This document shows positions 4,154 through 16,505 of a DNA stretch of 64,000 nucleotides, in pieces. The number at the start of each line of letters is the position of its first letter. Position 1 is the stretch's first letter. Under the pieces are notes generated by a model that did not search any database, had not been told where the DNA came from, and was given only the letters and a program-made list of their open reading frames with translations. The stretch is taken from positions 6,786 to 70,785 of the forward strand of contig JAZTWM010000015.1 in assembly GCA_045635825.1 (NCBI GenBank), read 5' to 3'. The stretch is from Candidatus Enterousia sp. GTDB taxonomy: Bacteria > Pseudomonadota > Alphaproteobacteria > Rs-D84. A program made the translations under genes and the position numbers.

Positions 4154-5404
4154 CTATCTCTTTTGCTTGTACGCCAAGACATATGGCACAAATTTTTCGG
4201 CGTGCGTATCACCCAACCAGACACGTGGAATCAAAATCGCATTCCCCATACCGGCCGCCATCTTGTCGATAACTTCGCCATTTTTGGCATTTCTTAACTC
4301 TGGTAATTTCACCGTCACAGAATCCATCGTCCCTGGCAGAATAAATGTGATTTCATCACCCGCGCGTGTTTCGTTACGCAATTCAAATGTAATATTTTCA
4401 TCGTCCACTGCAGTAATTACACCGGCTGCATGAAAGTTTGATGTACTGCGTGTTGTTTCGTAATTATGTGCATCTGCCGTCACAGGTCCATCAAAAAATG
4501 CCGTTGTATAACCACGTGTTTCCAATCGGTTCAGGTTTTCCATAAATGGTGTGGGATCAAAGTTTTCAGGGTCACGTGCATAGGTATCTAATGCACAACG
4601 ATATGCATGCACCACAGAACCAACATAATATTCACTGCGATTGCGACCTTCGATTTTTAAAGAATCAGGATTAGCAGATACAACATCCGCCAGACGTGGC
4701 ATCAGGCATAAATCTTTGGAGTTCATAATGTATGCACCACGATCATCTTCGGTAATTGGCATTTCAACACCGCTGTCTTTTTCACGCAATACGACATCAT
4801 ATTTCCAACGACACAATTGTGCACACGCACCACGATTTGCTGGACGGCCAGTTATAAAATTAGACAACAGGCAACGACCTGAATAAGACATACACATTGC
4901 ACCATGAACAAAGATTTCCAACCCAACATCTGGGCATTCGGCACGAATGGTTTTAAATTCACTGTGTGATACTTCACGTGCCAGAACACATAATTTCGCG
5001 CCTGCATTCTGCCAAAACTTTACGGTTTTCGCCGAGCAGATATTCGCCTGGGTTGAAATGTGAATTGGCATTTCTGGAAAGTTTTCACGCACCCACATTA
5101 CAATACCAGGATCCGACACAATCAGGGCATCAGGGCCCAGGTAGCGTATAACATCGGCTACACGTGGCATATGTGCATATTCGTGATCGTGTGCAAACAG
5201 GTTAAATGCCAGATAAACCTTTTTACCGGCCGCATGCGCCAATTCGATACCTTGCTTAACCCCTTCGACATCGATTTTTGCGCGTGCACGCATTGAAAAC
5301 CCAGGCAAACCCGCATAAATTGCATCTGCACCATATAAAATGGCGGTTTTAAAGGCATCCAACGTACCCGCCGGTGCCAAAAGTTCAGGTAATTTCGTAT
5401 TCAT
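4154..5404 (-). CDS. Peptidase U32 family protein (YegQ/TrhP-like)
   Basis: Conserved U32 core including the E-x-F-x-x-G-A-M-C-x-x-x-S-G-R-C motif (IFVHGAMCMSYSGRCLL). Start trimmed to MNTK (5404), which has an AGGGGG RBS. The longer listed ORF would overlap the tRNA. Confidence 0.8.
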   Translation of the reverse strand: MNTKLPELLAPAGTLDAFKTAILYGADAIYAGLPGFSMRARAKIDVEGVKQGIELAHAAGKKVYLAFNLFAHDHEYAHMPRVADVIRYLGPDALIVSDPGIVMWVRENFPEMPIHISTQANICSAKTVKFWQNAGAKLCVLAREVSHSEFKTIRAECPDVGLEIFVHGAMCMSYSGRCLLSNFITGRPANRGACAQLCRWKYDVVLREKDSGVEMPITEDDRGAYIMNSKDLCLMPRLADVVSANPDSLKIEGRNRSEYYVGSVVHAYRCALDTYARDPENFDPTPFMENLNRLETRGYTTAFFDGPVTADAHNYETTRSTSNFHAAGVITAVDDENITFELRNETRAGDEITFILPGTMDSVTVKLPELRNAKNGEVIDKMAAGMGNAILIPRVWLGDTHAEKFVPYVLAYKQKR

Positions 5405-5497
5405 ACCCCCTATTTTGCCCCAAATAAATCCAAAGGCAAGAAATTTTATGATTTTTTTACTTGCGTTTGTTTTCCAGATATGTATAATGGGTGGCAT

Positions 5498-5573
5498 GCC
5501 GGTTTAGCTCAGCTGGTAGAGCGGCTGATTTGTAATCAGTAGGTCGTTGGTTCAAGTCCGACAACCGGCACCA
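5498..5573 (+). tRNA. tRNA-Thr (anticodon UGU)
   Basis: 76-nt cloverleaf folded by hand. Acceptor GCCGGTT/AACCGGC, D-arm GCTCAGCTGGTAGAGC, anticodon loop TTTGTAA, T-arm GTTGGTTCAAGTCCGAC, encoded CCA. Followed by a hairpin terminator at 5577-5606. Confidence 0.85.
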
Positions 5574-5636
5574 GTTTAGAAACGCACCATTTGGTGCGTT
5601 TTTTCTTTGGATTTCTTTGACTTTTTGATTTTTTGT
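5525..5636 (+). repeat. attL: 112-bp direct repeat (3' two-thirds of tRNA-Thr plus 63 bp downstream)
   Basis: Identical to 11355-11466 over 112 bp (compared by eye, base by base). Confidence 0.85.
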
Positions 5637-8119: not shown

Positions 8120-8506
8120 TCAATATGGTTTTTGGGATAAGACTTTTGATACAATTAAGTCAGCTGGTAATTGTGGGTGTGCCGGCAGGTCTGATACTAG
8201 CACCCAGTGCATATCATCGTGGACATGCAATTGGATTTCGCCGAGATAGGATACGATTTCGTATGTGTGCAGTTCGATTACCTTACCTGAATCTGTTGTA
8301 TGTTTTGCGATTGTAATAAGGTCGCCAACTTGCGCATCTATCCCCAATTCTTCGGTCAGTTCACGTTTCAGGCATGTTGGTCCATCTTCACCATCTTCAA
8401 ATTTACCGCCGGGATATTCCCATTCGCCAGCCAATGGCTGGTCAGCCGCCCGTCGCATCAGCAGAACTTTATCCCCATCTCTAAAAATCGCAGCAGTTAC
8501 TTTCAT
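8120..8506 (-). CDS. NUDIX hydrolase
   Basis: Canonical Nudix box G-x5-E-x7-R-E-U-x-E-E-x-G-U: GKFEDGEDGPTCLKRELTEELGI. Confidence 0.85.
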   Translation of the reverse strand: MKVTAAIFRDGDKVLLMRRAADQPLAGEWEYPGGKFEDGEDGPTCLKRELTEELGIDAQVGDLITIAKHTTDSGKVIELHTYEIVSYLGEIQLHVHDDMHWVLVSDLPAHPQLPADLIVSKVLSQKPY

Positions 8507-8514
8507 TTGTTTCC

Positions 8515-9567
8515 TTAGGCCTTGGTATAAAACGTTGTGCGACCGTTGCCGTGTTTGACCAGGTGGCCATTATCTGTCAGGTTGCGCAGGATTTTCTTTA
8601 CCGTGTCGATATTCATCCCTAAATGCTGGGCCAGTTCACCCGATGACCATTCGGCACGCACCTCAAAAGCCCCCAGGATATTTAATGCATTACGGGACAA
8701 TGCGGTATCCGTACCGCTGGCACGTTCCAGCTTGGATTCCAGATGGCGTTTTTGTTTCTGTAATGATGTGATAAAGAAATCCAACCAAGGACCATAATCA
8801 ACGCTGTCCGACCAGATTGTCTTTTGCGTGTCATGCAACGCACGATAATACATGCCTTTGCTGGCCTCTATAATCGATTCCATTGACGCATATGGCATAT
8901 ATGAATAACCGCTTTGCAGCATCAGCATCGTTGTCAATGCACGTGACATACGTCCATTTCCGTCCTTGAACGGGTGAATAGACAGGAAATGCACAATAAA
9001 CACGCCAATCACAACGATTGGATGCAAATAACGTTCTTTCAGGTTCAGATTAGTCCAGTCCAGCAATTCGCCCATCAGACGTGGCGTATCGAACGGTGTT
9101 GCCGTTTCAAATATAGACCCGATTTCATGACCGTTTGCGTCAAAAGCGGCAACACGGTTGGATGAAGTTTTATATTCGCCACGGTGGTCGATATCCTTGC
9201 TGGAATGCGACAACAGAATTTTGTGCAACTGCTTGATATAATTTTCATTCAATGGAATAACCGAATAATCATTCAAGATACGGTCGACCAAGTCGGCATA
9301 TCCGGCAACTTCTTCTTCGTCACGACTTTTGAAAGATGTTTTGTTGACGTTTTTGAACAGGGTTTCGATTTCTGCATCTGTCATCTTGTTCCCCTCGATG
9401 CGGTTGGACGAGCCGACGGATTCAATGGTTGCAACCATTCTCATGGCACGCAAGACATCCGGGCGAACCTTAATCGCACCGCTGTCCCAGTTGGCCTTAA
9501 AAACGTCCAGTTCTGAAATCTTGTTCAGCATTTCTGGCGTGATAATAATATTCTTCATATTTGGCAT
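8515..9567 (-). CDS. Fic family protein with C-terminal winged-helix domain
   Basis: Fic motif HPFKDGNGRMSRAL. N-terminal inhibitory-helix-like SNRIEG (S-x-x-x-E-G). Confidence 0.85.
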   Translation of the reverse strand: MPNMKNIIITPEMLNKISELDVFKANWDSGAIKVRPDVLRAMRMVATIESVGSSNRIEGNKMTDAEIETLFKNVNKTSFKSRDEEEVAGYADLVDRILNDYSVIPLNENYIKQLHKILLSHSSKDIDHRGEYKTSSNRVAAFDANGHEIGSIFETATPFDTPRLMGELLDWTNLNLKERYLHPIVVIGVFIVHFLSIHPFKDGNGRMSRALTTMLMLQSGYSYMPYASMESIIEASKGMYYRALHDTQKTIWSDSVDYGPWLDFFITSLQKQKRHLESKLERASGTDTALSRNALNILGAFEVRAEWSSGELAQHLGMNIDTVKKILRNLTDNGHLVKHGNGRTTFYTKA

Positions 9568-9983
9568 GTTTTTACACCTTTTTACACAATTTTACACGAT
9601 TCTGCACGAAAAGCAACGATTTTTTACATTTTTCTGGGCGGATTTAAAGCGACACTTTAGATTATCGAAAATTTGCCCACTAACCCATCCCAAAATATCC
9701 CGGCGGTTACTTTCATTTATTCAATTTATCGCTAATTATATCGCTAGTTTTTTTGTCGAAACTAGCGATATATGATTATCGCCCGGATTTTATCAAATGT
9801 ACACATTTTGTTTTCCGACTCACCCAGCAACAAAAAAACGTGTAAAAACAAACCTTTTCCAAGTGCCAAGCAATAAATTTCTGTCATAATAGAAATTTTC
9901 TGCAGTTTTACATAAAATTTCTATTAAGGCAGTTTTCTGCAGTTCCCCAGACGTATATTCATGCGTAATATCAGACCATATTT
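9568..9983. promoter_or_regulatory. Island control region with several repeat motifs
   Basis: TTTTACAC x2; inverted repeat TATATCGCTAGTTT/AAACTAGCGATATA; TTCTGCAGTT x2 spaced about 34 bp apart. AT-rich. Lies between the fic operon and int. Confidence 0.4.
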
Positions 9984-11183
9984 TTACAATGAAACCGCCT
10001 CGATATATTTCTGTGGTATATTGTTCAGCATTTCGTTTGTTGCACGTTGCATTGATTGACGGATTGGGTCTGCTGATAAATGCGCATAGATTTGCGTGGC
10101 GGCAATTGACTTGTGACCCAATGAACGGCCAATAATTTGCAGGCTAGAACCTTCCATTGCTTGATAACTGCCCATTGTATGGCGCAGGTCATGTATGCGC
10201 ATGTTTTCAATGTTGGCACGTTTCAATAACGATGCCCATGATGACTTGGGTTCCTCAAGATGTCCGCTTTTGCTGGTATCGCTTGGGAATAGCCACGGAC
10301 TGTCGCCCGCATCATTTCGCATCTGTATTAACAAATCCATTGCATGCGTTGTCAAAGGAATATTGACATCATCGCCGTTTTTAGTGTCTGCAAAACGTAC
10401 AAAGCCGTTTTCAAGGTCAATATCTGACCAGCGCAAGGCCAACATATTGCTGCGACGTTGTGCCAAAAACAGTGATAACAACACATAATTGCGAAATACG
10501 GTATTTGAATATTTCAGCGCATCAAGAAATCGCCGCAGCTCTTCCTGGGACAAATAGCGAACGCGGCTTTTTTCTTTGAATGGTTTTATGTTCTGTGCAG
10601 GATTTTCTAATCTGCGTGGATACCCCAATTCATATGCCTTGTTATACATGTGGCGCAGTAAACTAAGTGTACGGTTGGCGGTGTATAAACCACAATTGCG
10701 TTTTATCGAATTATGCAGCTGTGTAACCTCTTGCTGTGTTATGGTACGCATCTGGCGATTATGAAACGGCGCTAGATGTCTTTCAAATGTGATATTATTG
10801 TCATAAACCGTCTTAGGTTTTTTATACAGCTGCGAATGCTGGGGAAGATAAACATTCTTGTAATAGTGTCCCAAGGTCATATCGTTCAATGCGTCACGAC
10901 GTTCTGTTGCAGGGTCTTCACCATGTAACGACCGTTCTTTATATTCATGTGCACGCATACGGGCCTCGGCTATTTTTATCTGACCGACACGGGCGATTTT
11001 TACGCGACGTGGCATTCCTTGAAATTTAAGATACGCGAAGTATGTTTTTGCTCCTCCATAACTTACATGTACGCATAATCCATCCAATGACCCAGTATCA
11101 TAATATATGACTGTGCCTGTCTTTGGAACCGGCAATGCATCCAGTGTTTTATTTGTAAAGTTGATACGATTTGACTTACTCAT
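9984..11183 (-). CDS. int: Tyrosine site-specific integrase
   Basis: C-terminal catalytic region ...RIHDLRHTMGS... and ...IAATQIYAHL (R..H..R..Y). Adjacent to attR. Confidence 0.9.
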   Translation of the reverse strand: MSKSNRINFTNKTLDALPVPKTGTVIYYDTGSLDGLCVHVSYGGAKTYFAYLKFQGMPRRVKIARVGQIKIAEARMRAHEYKERSLHGEDPATERRDALNDMTLGHYYKNVYLPQHSQLYKKPKTVYDNNITFERHLAPFHNRQMRTITQQEVTQLHNSIKRNCGLYTANRTLSLLRHMYNKAYELGYPRRLENPAQNIKPFKEKSRVRYLSQEELRRFLDALKYSNTVFRNYVLLSLFLAQRRSNMLALRWSDIDLENGFVRFADTKNGDDVNIPLTTHAMDLLIQMRNDAGDSPWLFPSDTSKSGHLEEPKSSWASLLKRANIENMRIHDLRHTMGSYQAMEGSSLQIIGRSLGHKSIAATQIYAHLSADPIRQSMQRATNEMLNNIPQKYIEAVSL

Positions 11184-11354
11184 AATTCCATTTCCTTTAT
11201 GTTATTTTTTTGCTACGTATTTGCTACCGCGGGCATAAAAAAACACATAACAACGTTCATTTCCATTCAACATTAGCAAAAATCAAAACAAATGCAAGAC
11301 ATTGTTTTTACTAAAATATTCATCATCATTCATCGTTATTCATGATTAAGCAAA

Positions 11355-11466
11355 CTGATTTGTAATCAGTAGGTCGTTGGTTCAAGTCCGACAACCGGCA
11401 CCAGTTTAGAAACGCACCATTTGGTGCGTTTTTTCTTTGGATTTCTTTGACTTTTTGATTTTTTGT
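11355..11466 (+). repeat. attR: second copy of the 112-bp repeat (truncated tRNA-Thr 3' part plus terminator)
   Basis: Identical to 5525-5636. Lacks the tRNA 5' half. Confidence 0.85.
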
Positions 11467-11655
11467 GTTTAGTGGCGAAGTCATGCGGGGCGGACAGTTT
11501 TTATTTTATTCGGGGCGTGCAAACGCAACCCATTTCTGCCCCATGACTCCAAAACACCAACAACTGTGATGCAAAGTGTGATGCGATGTGGTATCTGTGT
11601 AAAAAATAACTTGATTTATTTTTGTGTCATTTTAACCTGAAAAAAGGTACGTAAA

Positions 11656-13290
11656 ATGTTGATTGTAAAAAATCTTGAGAAGTCTTTTGATAGTAATATA
11701 ATTTTCAAAAACTTGAATTTTTCTGTTCAGGATGGTGAAAAAGTCGCTGTTGTCGGTTTAAATGGTGCCGGAAAATCGACTTTGTTTAGAATTTTATTAA
11801 ATCAAATTGATTACGACAGTGGTGAATTTTATATGGGTAAAAATCCACGAGTTGGCTGGATGCCACAAACCATTGACGAATTGAATCTGCCGGATGATGT
11901 TATTGTTTATGATTTCTTGCGTTCAGGGCGACCTTTGGCCGAAATAGAACGACGTATGACGGAAATATACACCAAAATGGCCGAAGGTGATGATTCAGAA
12001 GAATTGTTACAGCAATTGGGGGTGTGTCAATCTGAATTTGAATATTGGGATGGATATACTGCGGAATCTGAATTAGAAACTATGATAGACCAGATGGGCA
12101 TAGATCGTCAAAATCTGAGCAAAAAACTGGGTGAATTGTCCGGTGGTCAAAAATCCAAGATTTCATTTATCCGAACATTGTATTCTCGCCCTGGCGTTTT
12201 GTTTTTAGACGAGCCGACAAACCACCTGGATGCCGCCAGTCGAGAATGGATGACGGATTATTTGGTTGCAACAGATGCGTCTGTGATATTCATATCGCAT
12301 GATGAAGAGTTTATAAACAAGGTCGCGGATAAGACTCTGTATTTAGATGCTATGATGCATACCGGGACATTATATGGGTTTGGGTACAAACGTTTTTTAA
12401 GAACCCTGGCAGAAACAAACGAGAGTTTAGAACGGCAATTACAAAAGCAAATGCGTGAAATAAATCGTATCCAGGCATTTGTTGACAGTCAACGTGGCAA
12501 ATCGGGTAAGGCAAAAAGACAGGCGCAAAGTCGTGAAAAAATGTTAGATAAAATGCGTCAAAATCTGGTGGTTGCCCCAACGGAAAAGAAAGATATTGAT
12601 TTGGAGCTAAGCCCAAATCGTGAAGCGGATATTTTGCCAATCACGGTGGAAAATTTAAACTTTTCATACGTTGCCAATAAGAAAGTAATTAAAAATCTTA
12701 CATTTTCATTAAATCGGGGCGAGAAATTTTTAATTGTTGGGGAAAATGGCGCAGGTAAATCGACCTTGTTAAAATTATTATACAAAATATTAAAACCTGA
12801 TTCTGGTATTGTTCGTATTGGTAAAAAAACCGACTTGGGATACTATGCCCAGGAATACGAGACATTAAACCCAAATATAACAATTCTGGAAAACGCATCA
12901 AGTGTAACAAATATCAGTACATCAAAACTGCGTTCTGTTTTAAATCACTTTAATTTTGTTGGGGACAAGGTAAAACAAAGCGTAAAAACAATGTCGCCAG
13001 GCGAACGCAGCCGTTTAGAACTGGCCAAATTATGTCTTGGTGGTGCCAATGTTTTATTATTAGACGAACCAACAAATCATCTGGATGTGGCAACCAAGAA
13101 AACCATCGCACAAAGTTTTTCTGAATACGGCGGCACCCTAATTATCGTTAGTCATGACCTAGAATTCTTGAAACATGTTGGCATAGATAGAATGTTAATG
13201 TTGCCTAGCGGACGATTACAGTTTTTTGACGAAAATATTGTTCGCCGATACATGGAACAAGAGAAACAAAAAAGAATATTAACAAAATAA
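11656..13290 (+). CDS. ABC-F family ATPase (two tandem ABC domains, no TM domain)
   Basis: Two Walker A motifs (GLNGAGKST, GENGAGKST). Two signature/Walker B pairs (LSGGQKSK...LFLDEPTNHLD; LSPGERSR...LLLDEPTNHLD). Confidence 0.85.
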   Translation: MLIVKNLEKSFDSNIIFKNLNFSVQDGEKVAVVGLNGAGKSTLFRILLNQIDYDSGEFYMGKNPRVGWMPQTIDELNLPDDVIVYDFLRSGRPLAEIERRMTEIYTKMAEGDDSEELLQQLGVCQSEFEYWDGYTAESELETMIDQMGIDRQNLSKKLGELSGGQKSKISFIRTLYSRPGVLFLDEPTNHLDAASREWMTDYLVATDASVIFISHDEEFINKVADKTLYLDAMMHTGTLYGFGYKRFLRTLAETNESLERQLQKQMREINRIQAFVDSQRGKSGKAKRQAQSREKMLDKMRQNLVVAPTEKKDIDLELSPNREADILPITVENLNFSYVANKKVIKNLTFSLNRGEKFLIVGENGAGKSTLLKLLYKILKPDSGIVRIGKKTDLGYYAQEYETLNPNITILENASSVTNISTSKLRSVLNHFNFVGDKVKQSVKTMSPGERSRLELAKLCLGGANVLLLDEPTNHLDVATKKTIAQSFSEYGGTLIIVSHDLEFLKHVGIDRMLMLPSGRLQFFDENIVRRYMEQEKQKRILTK

Positions 13291-13304
13291 GAATGATAAA
13301 AAAA

Positions 13305-13844
13305 TCATTCTGCCACCTTCGCAAACATTTTCATATCACGCGGTTCGCCACGCAGGATGAAATATTTGCGCAATACACCTTCGCATTCATAACCACAGCG
13401 CATCGCCACCGCCGCAGAACGAATATTTTGTTTGTCCAGGGTCAATTGCACGCGTTGCAAACCCATATTAGCAAAACCCATTTCGGTCAGTTTATTCAAG
13501 GCGCGTGTCATTATGCCACGGCCATTAAAGCCATGCGCCAGCCAATAACTGATTTCGCCCATATTGTCGTCTGTATCCACAAACCCAATCTTGCCGACAA
13601 TATCATCGTCCACCATGATAAAGTAAGCGCACTTATCATCGCCAAACGATTTTTCAATATTCGCCAATGTTTTATCGGTTGTGGTATAAGCGTCAACCCA
13701 TTCCAAGAATTCGCCCAGGAATTCACGATTGGCATTTATAACCGACAGCAAGCGTTCCGCATTTTCCACCGTTGGTTCTAACTTCTCCAACCGGAAATCA
13801 CCCATATCAATACTACGTGAAAATTTATTTGTTAGATTTTCCAT
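13305..13844 (-). CDS. GNAT N-acetyltransferase (RimJ/RimL-like)
   Basis: GNAT core ...YWLAHGFNGRGIMTRALNKL... Confidence 0.7.
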   Translation of the reverse strand: MENLTNKFSRSIDMGDFRLEKLEPTVENAERLLSVINANREFLGEFLEWVDAYTTTDKTLANIEKSFGDDKCAYFIMVDDDIVGKIGFVDTDDNMGEISYWLAHGFNGRGIMTRALNKLTEMGFANMGLQRVQLTLDKQNIRSAAVAMRCGYECEGVLRKYFILRGEPRDMKMFAKVAE

Positions 13845-14178
13845 TATATTGCCTTTAATTTATTTCATGTATTTTATCATATTTTTTATCAAAATGCTAT
13901 GTGAGGCGATGTGTGATGCAGGCAGACAAATCAACTGTCTGAAACAGTTGGAAATCTTGGACTTTGGACTCGTCTTGGCATCCCGACAATGAACATCCGT
14001 CATTTTTCTTGTGAATCGCAGCAGTTACTTTCATAACAGCATAAGATTAAACAAATTGTGCAAATATTTCAATGAAATTGACTTGAATTTTACCGATATT
14101 TACCTATATCAATAGTGTCCGTTGGGGACAGAGTTTTAATTTCCAATTTTTATCAAACAACAGCCAAAGGGGGCAAGC

Positions 14179-14736
14179 ATGACACAAGTGTCAAGTGCGG
14201 TTGATGTGCTGTGGGATTTGTATATGGCGCACCCAGAAAAACTGAGCAAGGTTGACTGGGAATACCTGATACGAAACAAAGCAGGCGCATTAGTACGCGA
14301 AATACTGATTAAAAATATGCAAGAGCATATAAAGCCGACACAGGATAAATATGAACAACAATGGCGGACGGCCAACCAAGCCATTTTGCAACGCATTGGG
14401 CAATGTATTGGGGACGGTGGGCCGGTCGCATACATGGATCTGATTGCGGCAATTGATGCGGGGGTGGATATAAATATCCTGAAATACCTGATATCAAAGT
14501 GCGACAACATAAATGGGTGTGATGAAAATGGGCAGACAGCCCTGCATCACTGTGTGTTGAATTATGTCAGTTTGGATTTAGTGAACGAACTGTTTATCGC
14601 AGGAATAAATAGTGCGGCACTGGACAACAAAGGTCTGGATGCGCGTGATTATTTAGATAAAGACATCTGGGGCGATGATTACGGGACGGCACGCATGATG
14701 TTGCGTCCCACTTGGACATATTTCTATGACGAATAA
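14179..14736 (+). CDS. Ankyrin-repeat protein
   Basis: Repeats of the type ENGQTALHHCVLNY...LVNELFIAGINSAALDNKGLDARDYL. Confidence 0.7.
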   Translation: MTQVSSAVDVLWDLYMAHPEKLSKVDWEYLIRNKAGALVREILIKNMQEHIKPTQDKYEQQWRTANQAILQRIGQCIGDGGPVAYMDLIAAIDAGVDINILKYLISKCDNINGCDENGQTALHHCVLNYVSLDLVNELFIAGINSAALDNKGLDARDYLDKDIWGDDYGTARMMLRPTWTYFYDE

Positions 14737-14746
14737 GGGGGGGGGG
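14737..14746 (+). repeat. G10 homopolymeric tract
   Basis: Ten consecutive G immediately after the ankyrin stop codon and 6 nt before the ATG at 14753. Seen directly. Confidence 0.9.
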
Positions 14747-14752
14747 TACAAA

Positions 14753-14974
14753 ATGACACCAAAAGCACAAGAATACTTATCAGTGGCGACATGCTTGGCA
14801 AGCACCAGTTTAACCGAGGCAGAACGCAGTAAAACCCATGATAAATTACGCACCATCAAGCAATCGTTTGATGTGGCAGATTGGGATGCACTGATTACAT
14901 GGTCAAACAGCCCAACCATACGTGCAGAATTACATAAGCAGAAAATTGCAGACGCGACAGTATTTGCCCGATAA
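14753..14974 (+). CDS. Small hypothetical protein (73 aa), start context includes the G-tract
   Basis: ORF 14726-14974. The in-frame upstream ATG at 14726 spans the G-tract. The ATG at 14753 has the G-run as a Shine-Dalgarno sequence. Confidence 0.35.
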   Translation: MTPKAQEYLSVATCLASTSLTEAERSKTHDKLRTIKQSFDVADWDALITWSNSPTIRAELHKQKIADATVFAR

Positions 14975-15000
14975 TAAAAATCCCCCAAAGTTGATAGGTT

Positions 15001-15906
15001 TTATTCAAACATTTCAAGTGGGATGTCATATTCATGACAGAATTCGTAAAAGAACTCTAGAAATGCCTGAACCTTGGGACTTTTAATTGTTAGGGGGTTT
15101 CCAATGCCTGTTAAGATATATTCATAGTCAAATTCTATGTTTGGAACCTCTATCAATTTTTCATTACGCATTGTACACCAATCAGGCATCAAGGAAATAC
15201 CTGCCCCGTCACACACCAATTGATACAGAATTGATGCAGAATCAGCCGTCACATTCAATTTTTTTGCACGCTTTAAAATGAAATTACATTCGGGCAGTTG
15301 TAAAAACTTTTGACGGATACACAAGTCATAATTTTCCAGCATATCATCCATATCACGTGGAACCCCACGTTTTTGTAAATATTCTGGTGTTGTATAGAAC
15401 TTTGTCTTGGTCTTGAATTTGAACAAAGGGGTTGTCCCAGGTATTTTTTGTAATGACCGAATGTCAATAATTGAAATATCTGGGTTGGTCATGTTCATGT
15501 GTCTGTTGGTCAAAATGTCCAGACGGATTTTGGGATGCTTGGCATATAATTTTGATAATTCAATGAATAGACGACTGCCGGCAAAACCTTCTTCGGTCCA
15601 GATAGAAATGTGACCGGTCAATTCATCGGGCCCAGTAATATTATGCAAAATATTTTCCAACGCATTTGATATGCTTTCAATATCTGCATATAACTGACGG
15701 GTGGTATTGGTGGGGACACTGCCAGAAGAACTGCGTATCAGCAGACGGGTTTTGAAGCGTGCCTCTAAATCCGCAATCAATTTTGACATATTTGAATGCT
15801 TAATCCCATTGCGTTCGGCGGCAGCATGAATTTGACCAAGATCTATTACCTCTTTCAACGCCAACAATTCACGTAGAAATGCAATTTTAGTTTTAATTGT
15901 TGGCAT
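15001..15906 (-). CDS. LysR-family transcriptional regulator
   Basis: N-terminal HTH (LRELLALKEVIDLGQIHAAAERNGIKHSNMSKLIADLE) plus a co-inducer-binding-sized C-terminus. Divergent from a downstream regulator/exporter pair. Confidence 0.8.
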   Translation of the reverse strand: MPTIKTKIAFLRELLALKEVIDLGQIHAAAERNGIKHSNMSKLIADLEARFKTRLLIRSSSGSVPTNTTRQLYADIESISNALENILHNITGPDELTGHISIWTEEGFAGSRLFIELSKLYAKHPKIRLDILTNRHMNMTNPDISIIDIRSLQKIPGTTPLFKFKTKTKFYTTPEYLQKRGVPRDMDDMLENYDLCIRQKFLQLPECNFILKRAKKLNVTADSASILYQLVCDGAGISLMPDWCTMRNEKLIEVPNIEFDYEYILTGIGNPLTIKSPKVQAFLEFFYEFCHEYDIPLEMFE

Positions 15907-16194
15907 ATATACCCCTTTGAATTAAATATTGAATCTATTTTTATAGTGTGTTTTAGGAATATATACCATTAAACAACAAATAGCCAGTGGAATATATTCT
16001 TTTCCGCATAAGAATAAAACCTTATTTTAAGACCGAAAATTAGAAAAAATGCCCAGAAATATAAATATTTTCATGTTCCATGCCCCTTTTTATACATTAT
16101 ATCTCATAAAAACAGTATGAAAGAGATTAGGAAAACGTGTTTTATAATCATCGTGTGTTCAAAGCAACAAACAGTTAAAAAAAAGGAGACAACT

Positions 16195-16425
16195 ATGACA
16201 CACAATGACGTATGGAATGCAATCGACAAATTCGCATCTTCTAAGAAAATGTCCTGTTCGGGATTGGCAAGATTCAGTGGTCTGGACCCAACAACATTTA
16301 ACAAAAGCAAACGCAGTTCAAAATATGGTCAGCCAAGATGGCCTTCAACAAACAGCATCGCAAAAATACTGGACGCGACACATTCAAATATAGATGAATT
16401 TATTAGATGTTTTTATCAGCAATAA
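16195..16425 (+). CDS. Small HTH DNA-binding protein (Cro/CI-like)
   Basis: 77 aa from MTHNDVW with an AAGGAGA RBS. HTH-like segment SCSGLARFSGLDPTTFNKSKR. Own hairpin terminator at 16437-16465. Confidence 0.55.
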   Translation: MTHNDVWNAIDKFASSKKMSCSGLARFSGLDPTTFNKSKRSSKYGQPRWPSTNSIAKILDATHSNIDEFIRCFYQQ

Positions 16426-16505
16426 CCTTTTACCCCATTTTACAATCCCCAAAAAAGGGGATTTTTTTATTGAAAAAATATATGGTGTTATATAGACTGA
16501 GAGAC

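Follow-up and report, generated by a model that had tools for sequence, protein, structure and literature searches.

A run of ten G residues (G10) between two genes of a Candidatus Enterousia strain is probably a recent, strain-specific expansion of a G-rich Shine-Dalgarno (SD) sequence, whose effect would be neutral or mildly quantitative. We analyzed the run within a 64-kb stretch of DNA (64,000 nucleotides, hereafter the window), in which the junction reads ...TTC TAT GAC GAA TAA GGGGGGGGGG TACAAA ATG ACA CCA..., with a stop-to-start gap of 16 nt. As originally predicted, and as borne out by the sequence, the run lies between the TAA stop codon of an ankyrin-repeat gene (14734-14736) and the ATG of a small ORF at 14753, 6 nt before that ATG. 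In the explanation that we favor, G10 is the SD of a conserved 73-aa gene lying downstream of a 185-aa ankyrin-repeat gene. In one strain this SD would have gained five G, passing from a GGGAG, GGGGG or AGGGG core with an 11-nt gap to G10 with a 16-nt gap, most likely because an A first changed to G and the run then slipped during replication. Lengthening would have occurred at the 5′ side, the 3′ end being kept 6 nt from the ATG, and the site would still function as an SD. The predicted duplex with the anti-SD would be somewhat stronger and would have several equivalent binding registers, and the likely outcome is that translation of the small protein would be unchanged or mildly, gradedly altered. 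The features of the junction are as follows.

14179-14736, plus strand: ORF of the 185-aa upstream cistron, with an N-terminal helical module and C-terminal ankyrin repeats, ending in ...FYDE and TAA
14726-14728, plus strand: upstream ATG (frame +2) within the final codons of the ankyrin gene, not regarded as a start codon
14737-14746, plus strand: G10 homopolymer, the expanded SD of the small ORF; unique run, with 5 nt inserted relative to every relative (alignment A3)
14747-14752, plus strand: TACAAA spacer of 6 nt from the run to the start codon, its length independent of tract length
14753-14974, plus strand: downstream cistron, 73-aa protein predicted to have four helices; 107 homologues, M1 invariant
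15001-15906, minus strand: convergent gene for a LysR-family regulator (Pfam HTH_1 and LysR_substrate), given for context only

The G10 junction and its two cistrons

G10 was the only G or C homopolymer of at least 7 nt in the 64-kb window. Runs of 3, 4, 5 and 6 G or C numbered 671, 170, 42 and 7, respectively, none had a length of 7 to 9, and one had a length of 10, whereas the number of runs of at least 10 expected per 64 kb was 0.014 for independent bases and 0.026 for a first-order Markov model. G/C runs of at least 7 were absent from 107 kb of relatives' DNA. The genome had been described as low in GC, which holds only moderately, since the GC content of the window is 41%. Members of the Candidatus Enterousia/Rs-D84 lineage (order Rs-D84) have genomes of less than about 1 Mb, and at this genome size the naive chance expectation for one such run per genome is about 0.2-0.4 (PMC12306168 for genome size). 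G10 is an outlier, though not an astronomically unlikely one. It sits in the intercistronic leader of the small ORF, that is, in untranslated mRNA. Homopolymers of this length are slippage-prone, G/C tracts in this length range are hypermutable in other bacteria, and the G10 tract itself probably slips. An Rfam search over the window returned four tRNAs only, with no RNA family at the tract. An intramolecular G-quadruplex within G10 was rejected by reasoning: the run is too short to supply the minimum of 11 nt taken up by four G-pairs plus three loops, and neighboring G-runs are lacking.

The ankyrin assignment made in the original prediction was upheld by domain and structure searches. The 185-aa protein scored just below the cutoff for Pfam Ank_2 (26.6 bits, cutoff 27.3), its AlphaFold (AF2) model had a pLDDT of 87, and Foldseek aligned about 90 C-terminal residues of the model with DARPins and consensus ankyrins (probability 1.0, rmsd 2.2-2.7 Å). 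Judged by the predicted tandem 33-residue helix-turn-helix-loop repeats, the product of the upstream gene is an ankyrin-repeat protein. The gene has an SD of its own, AAAGGGGG, 5 nt before its ATG. We found 48 homologues of the protein, mostly of 185 aa, and a genome scan with it located nine loci with 81-91% amino acid identity, all of them in metagenome-assembled gut 'Alphaproteobacteria' or 'Candidatus Enterousia'. Four homologues (P0143, P0141, P0144 and P0153) were truncated or had unrelated N-termini, probably because the short metagenome contigs that encode them are frameshifted or chimeric. Exact-protein look-ups with the ankyrin protein and with the 73-aa and 82-aa forms of the small protein gave no match.

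The 107 homologues of the 73-aa protein were 56-74 aa long and, like the ankyrin loci, all came from gut-metagenome-type samples. M1 was invariant in a 68-sequence alignment, and changes in the small ORF were in excess at the third codon position. The AF2 model consisted of four helices (pLDDT 82). The protein belonged to no family in Pfam, NCBIfam, PADLOC or PHROGs, and a Foldseek comparison of its model with the PDB gave no match with E below 1. A profile search of 1.84 billion representative proteins yielded only 3 clusters of the family, all from the same clade; within the collections searched, the family is confined to the Candidatus Enterousia/Rs-D84 clade. One further match of that search, P0158, is a perfect tandem-repeat protein and was judged spurious. 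In 283-aa paralogues (P0145-P0150) the ankyrin repeats are preceded by a helical F-x-x-A-D-W-[DE]-x-L-I module, of which these paralogues carry additional N-terminal copies, and the 73-aa protein is similar to this module. The similarity was moderate (BLASTP E values of 1e-3 and 4e-3; hhalign probability 64%, E 6.6e-5), and suggests that the small protein is a free-standing copy of its neighbor's domain. It was seen only with the 283-aa paralogues; when the small ORF was compared by BLASTP with the ankyrin protein of the window itself, there was no match.

A consensus scan detected no promoter-like or terminator-like site between the ankyrin gene and the small ORF, and the two genes are therefore probably co-transcribed on a single mRNA. 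The same scan bears on the suggestion that the length of the run tunes the −35/−10 spacing of an internal promoter on either strand, which we regard as extremely unlikely. Hexamers that flank the run do bear a weak resemblance to promoter boxes (ATGACG ... TACAAA, with a 15-nt spacer), but the scan found no promoter-like site there on either strand, and a −10 box at 14747-14752 would place the start of transcription at or beyond the ATG. Moreover, the spacer would be only 10 nt long in all of the relatives, and on the minus strand there is no gene downstream for about 900 nt.

The same junction in related strains

We read the corresponding junction in 42 distinct relatives, comprising L001-L007 and L009, L010 and L011, L012 and L013, and two sets of strains. 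The first set consisted of ten strains each of two other species, and the second was found via exact matches to the window's LysR protein, which is identical on 18 contigs, and to its 76-aa HTH protein. Eleven strains, L010 included, were near-conspecific, with 94-97% DNA identity to window positions 14014-16500. The gap between the stop and start codons was 11 nt in all 42 relatives and consisted of a short core rich in G, followed by a spacer of 6 nt. The core contained 3-5 G, and the longest G run at the junction was 5. The forms observed were TAA-A-GGGG-TACAAA-ATG, TAA-GGGAG-CACAAC-ATG, TAA-AGGAG-TGTAAC-ATG, TAA-AGGCG-AACAAC-ATG and, in L036, TAA-GGGGG-CACAAC-ATG. Among the near-conspecific strains the core was GGGAG in eight, AGGAG in two and GGGGG in one (L036), and in the two other species the junction was invariant within the ten strains of each. 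Compared across strains, the predicted switch is not conserved, no relative having a tract that exceeds G5. When JGI metagenomes were scanned specifically for at least 6 G at the junction there were 0 matches, and a scan of the same metagenomes for the general junction pattern recovered two loci only, both with normal SDs.

Alignment of the window with these sequences revealed that G10 corresponds to a 5-nt insertion relative to every relative, and that its flanks are collinear with theirs base for base on both sides. The insertion was the sole indel that distinguished the window from L035, L038, L040 and L042 over 1.8-2.5 kb. Because the relatives carry a normal SD at the homologous position, the G10 of the window represents a 5-nt expansion of that SD, and the GGGGG core of L036 shows a plausible A>G intermediate (GGGAG to GGGGG). 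The TACAAA spacer follows AGGGG in many relatives, whereas the closest strains have CACAAC or CACAAA in place of the TACAAA of the window. This difference indicates that change at the junction was not limited to the run, and recombination may have been part of its history.

A sequencing or assembly artefact, with a real tract that is shorter (G4-G5) or of miscalled length, is an alternative that we consider rather unlikely. Homopolymeric G runs are error-prone, and two-color Illumina chemistry yields spurious poly-G. Such dark-cycle poly-G, however, extends to the ends of reads and does not stand inside correct sequence, and an overcall of five residues would be large for any platform. That the tract is unique with respect to 42 relatives and is the sole indel in 2.5 kb would fit a miscall, but the flanks match the relatives to the base and the long ORFs of the window are intact, which together argue against a gross error; nor was any other homopolymer of the window anomalous. 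Since every relative is a metagenome assembly, the window is probably one as well, and the interleaved perfect repeats that lie nearby could hint at assembly problems.

A second homopolymer lies 1.4 kb from G10. This A8 run (16177-16184) lies directly next to the GGAG SD of the gene for the 76-aa HTH protein (ATG at 16195) and is A7 in L034, L037, L039 and L041. It is a true strain-level length polymorphism, and homopolymer slippage next to SDs therefore occurs in this species.

Tract length and translation of the small ORF

The proposal that the G-run acts as an SD was supported by the relatives, which have GGGAG, AGGGG or AGGAG at the same site, 6 nt before the same ATG. An SD of the AAGGGG/GGAG style precedes 32 of the 45 long ORFs in the window, and AAGGGG and AAGGGGG are common among its genes, including the ankyrin gene and the LysR gene. 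Being G-rich, complementary to the canonical anti-SD, placed within the 4-9 nt expected ahead of a conserved start codon and conserved in position among homologues, the run is an SD. It resembles the ordinary SD in the short intercistronic gap of a two-gene operon in standing 6 nt from the ATG, in having a purine core, rich in G, for pairing with CCUCC, and in its homology to the SDs of relatives. It differs in that G10 is twice the usual length, in that the gap is 16 nt against 11 nt for the family, and in that several registers are equivalent.

We modelled the pairing of the run with the canonical CCUCC anti-SD, which was assumed because the 16S gene is absent from the window. Duplexes formed by tracts of G8 to G12 had the same energies, about −10 kcal/mol at spacers of 3-7, compared to −7.4 for the ancestral AGGGG. 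In the model each extra G added one more upstream register of equal energy, and it also lengthened the stop-to-start gap. The original prediction had held that a slip of one residue would change the spacing between the SD and the ATG at 14753. This was contradicted by the geometry of the site: slippage shifts the 5′ edge only and the 3′ edge is fixed 6 nt from the ATG, so the SD-to-ATG distance is constant, and ATG-proximal pairing was identical from G8 to G12. What does move when the tract slips is the 5′ edge and with it the distance to the upstream stop codon. When tracts of G4 to G13 were placed at the junction, partition-function folding left the predicted accessibility of the SD and the AUG unchanged, and an RNA-structure switch was rejected for this reason. 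A one-unit change thus falls outside any real ORF, outside a promoter spacer, and leaves the SD geometry constant. In these models an on/off switch by slippage is not supported; a mild graded effect may arise via the extra non-productive registers or the altered reinitiation distance.

The second mechanism put forward in the original prediction concerned the ATG at 14726. This codon does lie in frame, 27 nt upstream of the ATG at 14753, and would add MTNKGGGYK before the M of the small protein, with no intervening stop, but its frame agrees with that of the small ORF solely through the present tract length of G10. As a start codon it did not withstand comparison. No SD precedes it, in every relative it is out of frame because the gap there is 11 nt rather than 16 nt, and a synonymous TAT>TAC change abolishes it altogether in L039 and L041. 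None of the 107 homologues carries the N-terminal extension, none is longer than 74 aa, and M1 is invariant. Chance alone would put the ATG in frame one time in three. To judge from these sequences, the in-frame upstream ATG is a coincidence of the present tract length. The same observations make it very improbable that the locus is a frame-dependent isoform switch, in which translation would begin at 14726 and give 82 aa at G10 (or at G7 or G13), and would give 73 aa at other lengths.

A further alternative is that the run is a genuine contingency locus or a translational rheostat, slippage altering the amount of the small protein relative to its ankyrin partner. We consider this unlikely, and hold still more doubtful its specific form as a strain-level rheostat built into the SD that would tune the ratio of the small helical protein to the ankyrin protein. 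Three routes could be imagined for a rheostat: competition between productive and non-productive registers of anti-SD pairing, an altered termination-reinitiation distance, or a C/U-rich sRNA acting on the G-run, as RepG does on tlpB in Helicobacter pylori. The run sits on a translation signal, and an extra G would both add an upstream register of equal energy and widen the stop-to-start gap, but the modelled ATG-proximal geometry of the SD is independent of tract length. Likewise G10 has the hypermutable length (about 8 or more G/C) typical of contingency loci, yet tracts of differing length were not seen in related strains, the 42 relatives having at most G5 and a constant 11-nt gap, the 11 near-conspecific strains and the ten strains each of the two invariant species included; nor did the JGI scan find any longer run. 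Simple-sequence contingency loci with poly-G/C tracts, as in Campylobacter, Neisseria, Haemophilus and Helicobacter, share with our locus a run of at least 8 G/C, an AT-leaning small host-associated genome and a position next to a gene. Classical contingency loci lie inside a reading frame or a promoter spacer, have tracts of variable length that are kept across strains, and number many per genome. By contrast, G10 is outside ORF and promoter, is absent from the 42 relatives, and is single in the 64 kb of the window plus 107 kb of relatives; with no further G/C tract of at least 7, nothing points to a repertoire of phase-variable genes. In sum, the SD site and the slippage-prone length of the proposed phase-variation switch were retained, whereas both of its mechanisms failed and the expansion was strain-specific, and no evolved on/off switch is indicated.

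Graded control by G-repeats in 5′ leaders is documented (PMC8295292; PMC11898584), and few regulators are present in genomes reduced to less than 1 Mb (PMC12306168), both of which would suit a rheostat. In H. pylori a leader G-repeat in tlpB-hp0102, a bicistronic mRNA, is targeted by the sRNA RepG, giving post-transcriptional control that is graded rather than on/off (PMC8295292). That repeat lies well upstream of the ribosome-binding site (RBS), ranges between strains from 6 to 16 G and depends on an sRNA with a conserved C/U-rich loop (PMC8295292). G10 is similarly a homopolymeric G-repeat in the untranslated part of an mRNA that is probably bicistronic, but here the repeat is itself the RBS, its length does not vary among strains, and no sRNA partner was found in the 64-kb window. 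When we looked in the window for a C/U-rich sRNA resembling RepG, the top hits outside the complement of the tract were ordinary C/T-rich stretches, and the best C/U-rich stretch inspected was the reverse complement of another gene's SD. In the espR 5′ UTR of Mycobacterium tuberculosis, one additional G in a leader homopolymer alters translation efficiency, which was attributed to refolding of a structured 5′ UTR (PMC11898584); unlike this case, the predicted folding and accessibility at the G10 junction were unchanged by tract length.

Should a rheostat nevertheless operate, it would do so in a gut symbiont with a genome below 1 Mb and few conventional regulators, and on a small protein that resembles the N-terminal module of its ankyrin partner. 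If it modulated translation, the tract would be a rare case in which the ribosome-binding site and a hypermutable repeat are one and the same, and this in a gut lineage that is uncultured and has a reduced genome. Under the expansion that we favor, the junction would exemplify a normal SD running away by slippage, from GGGAG through GGGGG to G10. It also cautions that a conspicuous homopolymer beside a gene does not alone make a phase-variation switch, and offers two reusable checks that decided most of the matter here, namely which edge of the tract moves on slipping and whether relatives have any tract.

Genomic surroundings of the gene pair

The ankyrin/small-ORF pair is missing from some strains. 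L045 and L048, and probably L051, carry identical LysR and HTH proteins yet have a histidine-phosphatase gene in place of the pair; in these strains the HTH gene is followed by a different gene rather than an ABC transporter. Within the species, the pair is thus an accessory one. In one Candidatus Enterousia genome (L008, positions 5001-5600) the ankyrin gene is present without the small ORF, and unrelated sequence follows its TAA.

Compared to the nearest strains, the window contains an insertion of about 5.5 kb (8486-14034), whose end is separated by 145 nt from the ankyrin gene downstream. The two copies of a perfect 21-bp direct repeat, AATCGCAGCAGTTACTTTCAT, delimit it at 8486-8506 and 14014-14034; this repeat corresponds to the first codons of the NUDIX gene. 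The insertion contains the following genes.

8518-9567, minus strand: Fic/DOC protein
9987-11183, minus strand: tyrosine integrase
11656-13290, plus strand: ABC-F ATPase
13305-13844, minus strand: GNAT acetyltransferase

A perfect 112-bp direct repeat at 5525-5636 and 11355-11466 comprises the 3′ half of tRNA-Thr(tgt) together with a hairpin and a tail rich in T. Its second copy lies about 170 nt from the start of the integrase gene and looks like an att site. The pair of 112-bp repeats is interleaved with the pair of 21-bp repeats, an arrangement for which serial integrations or an assembly mis-join are possible explanations.
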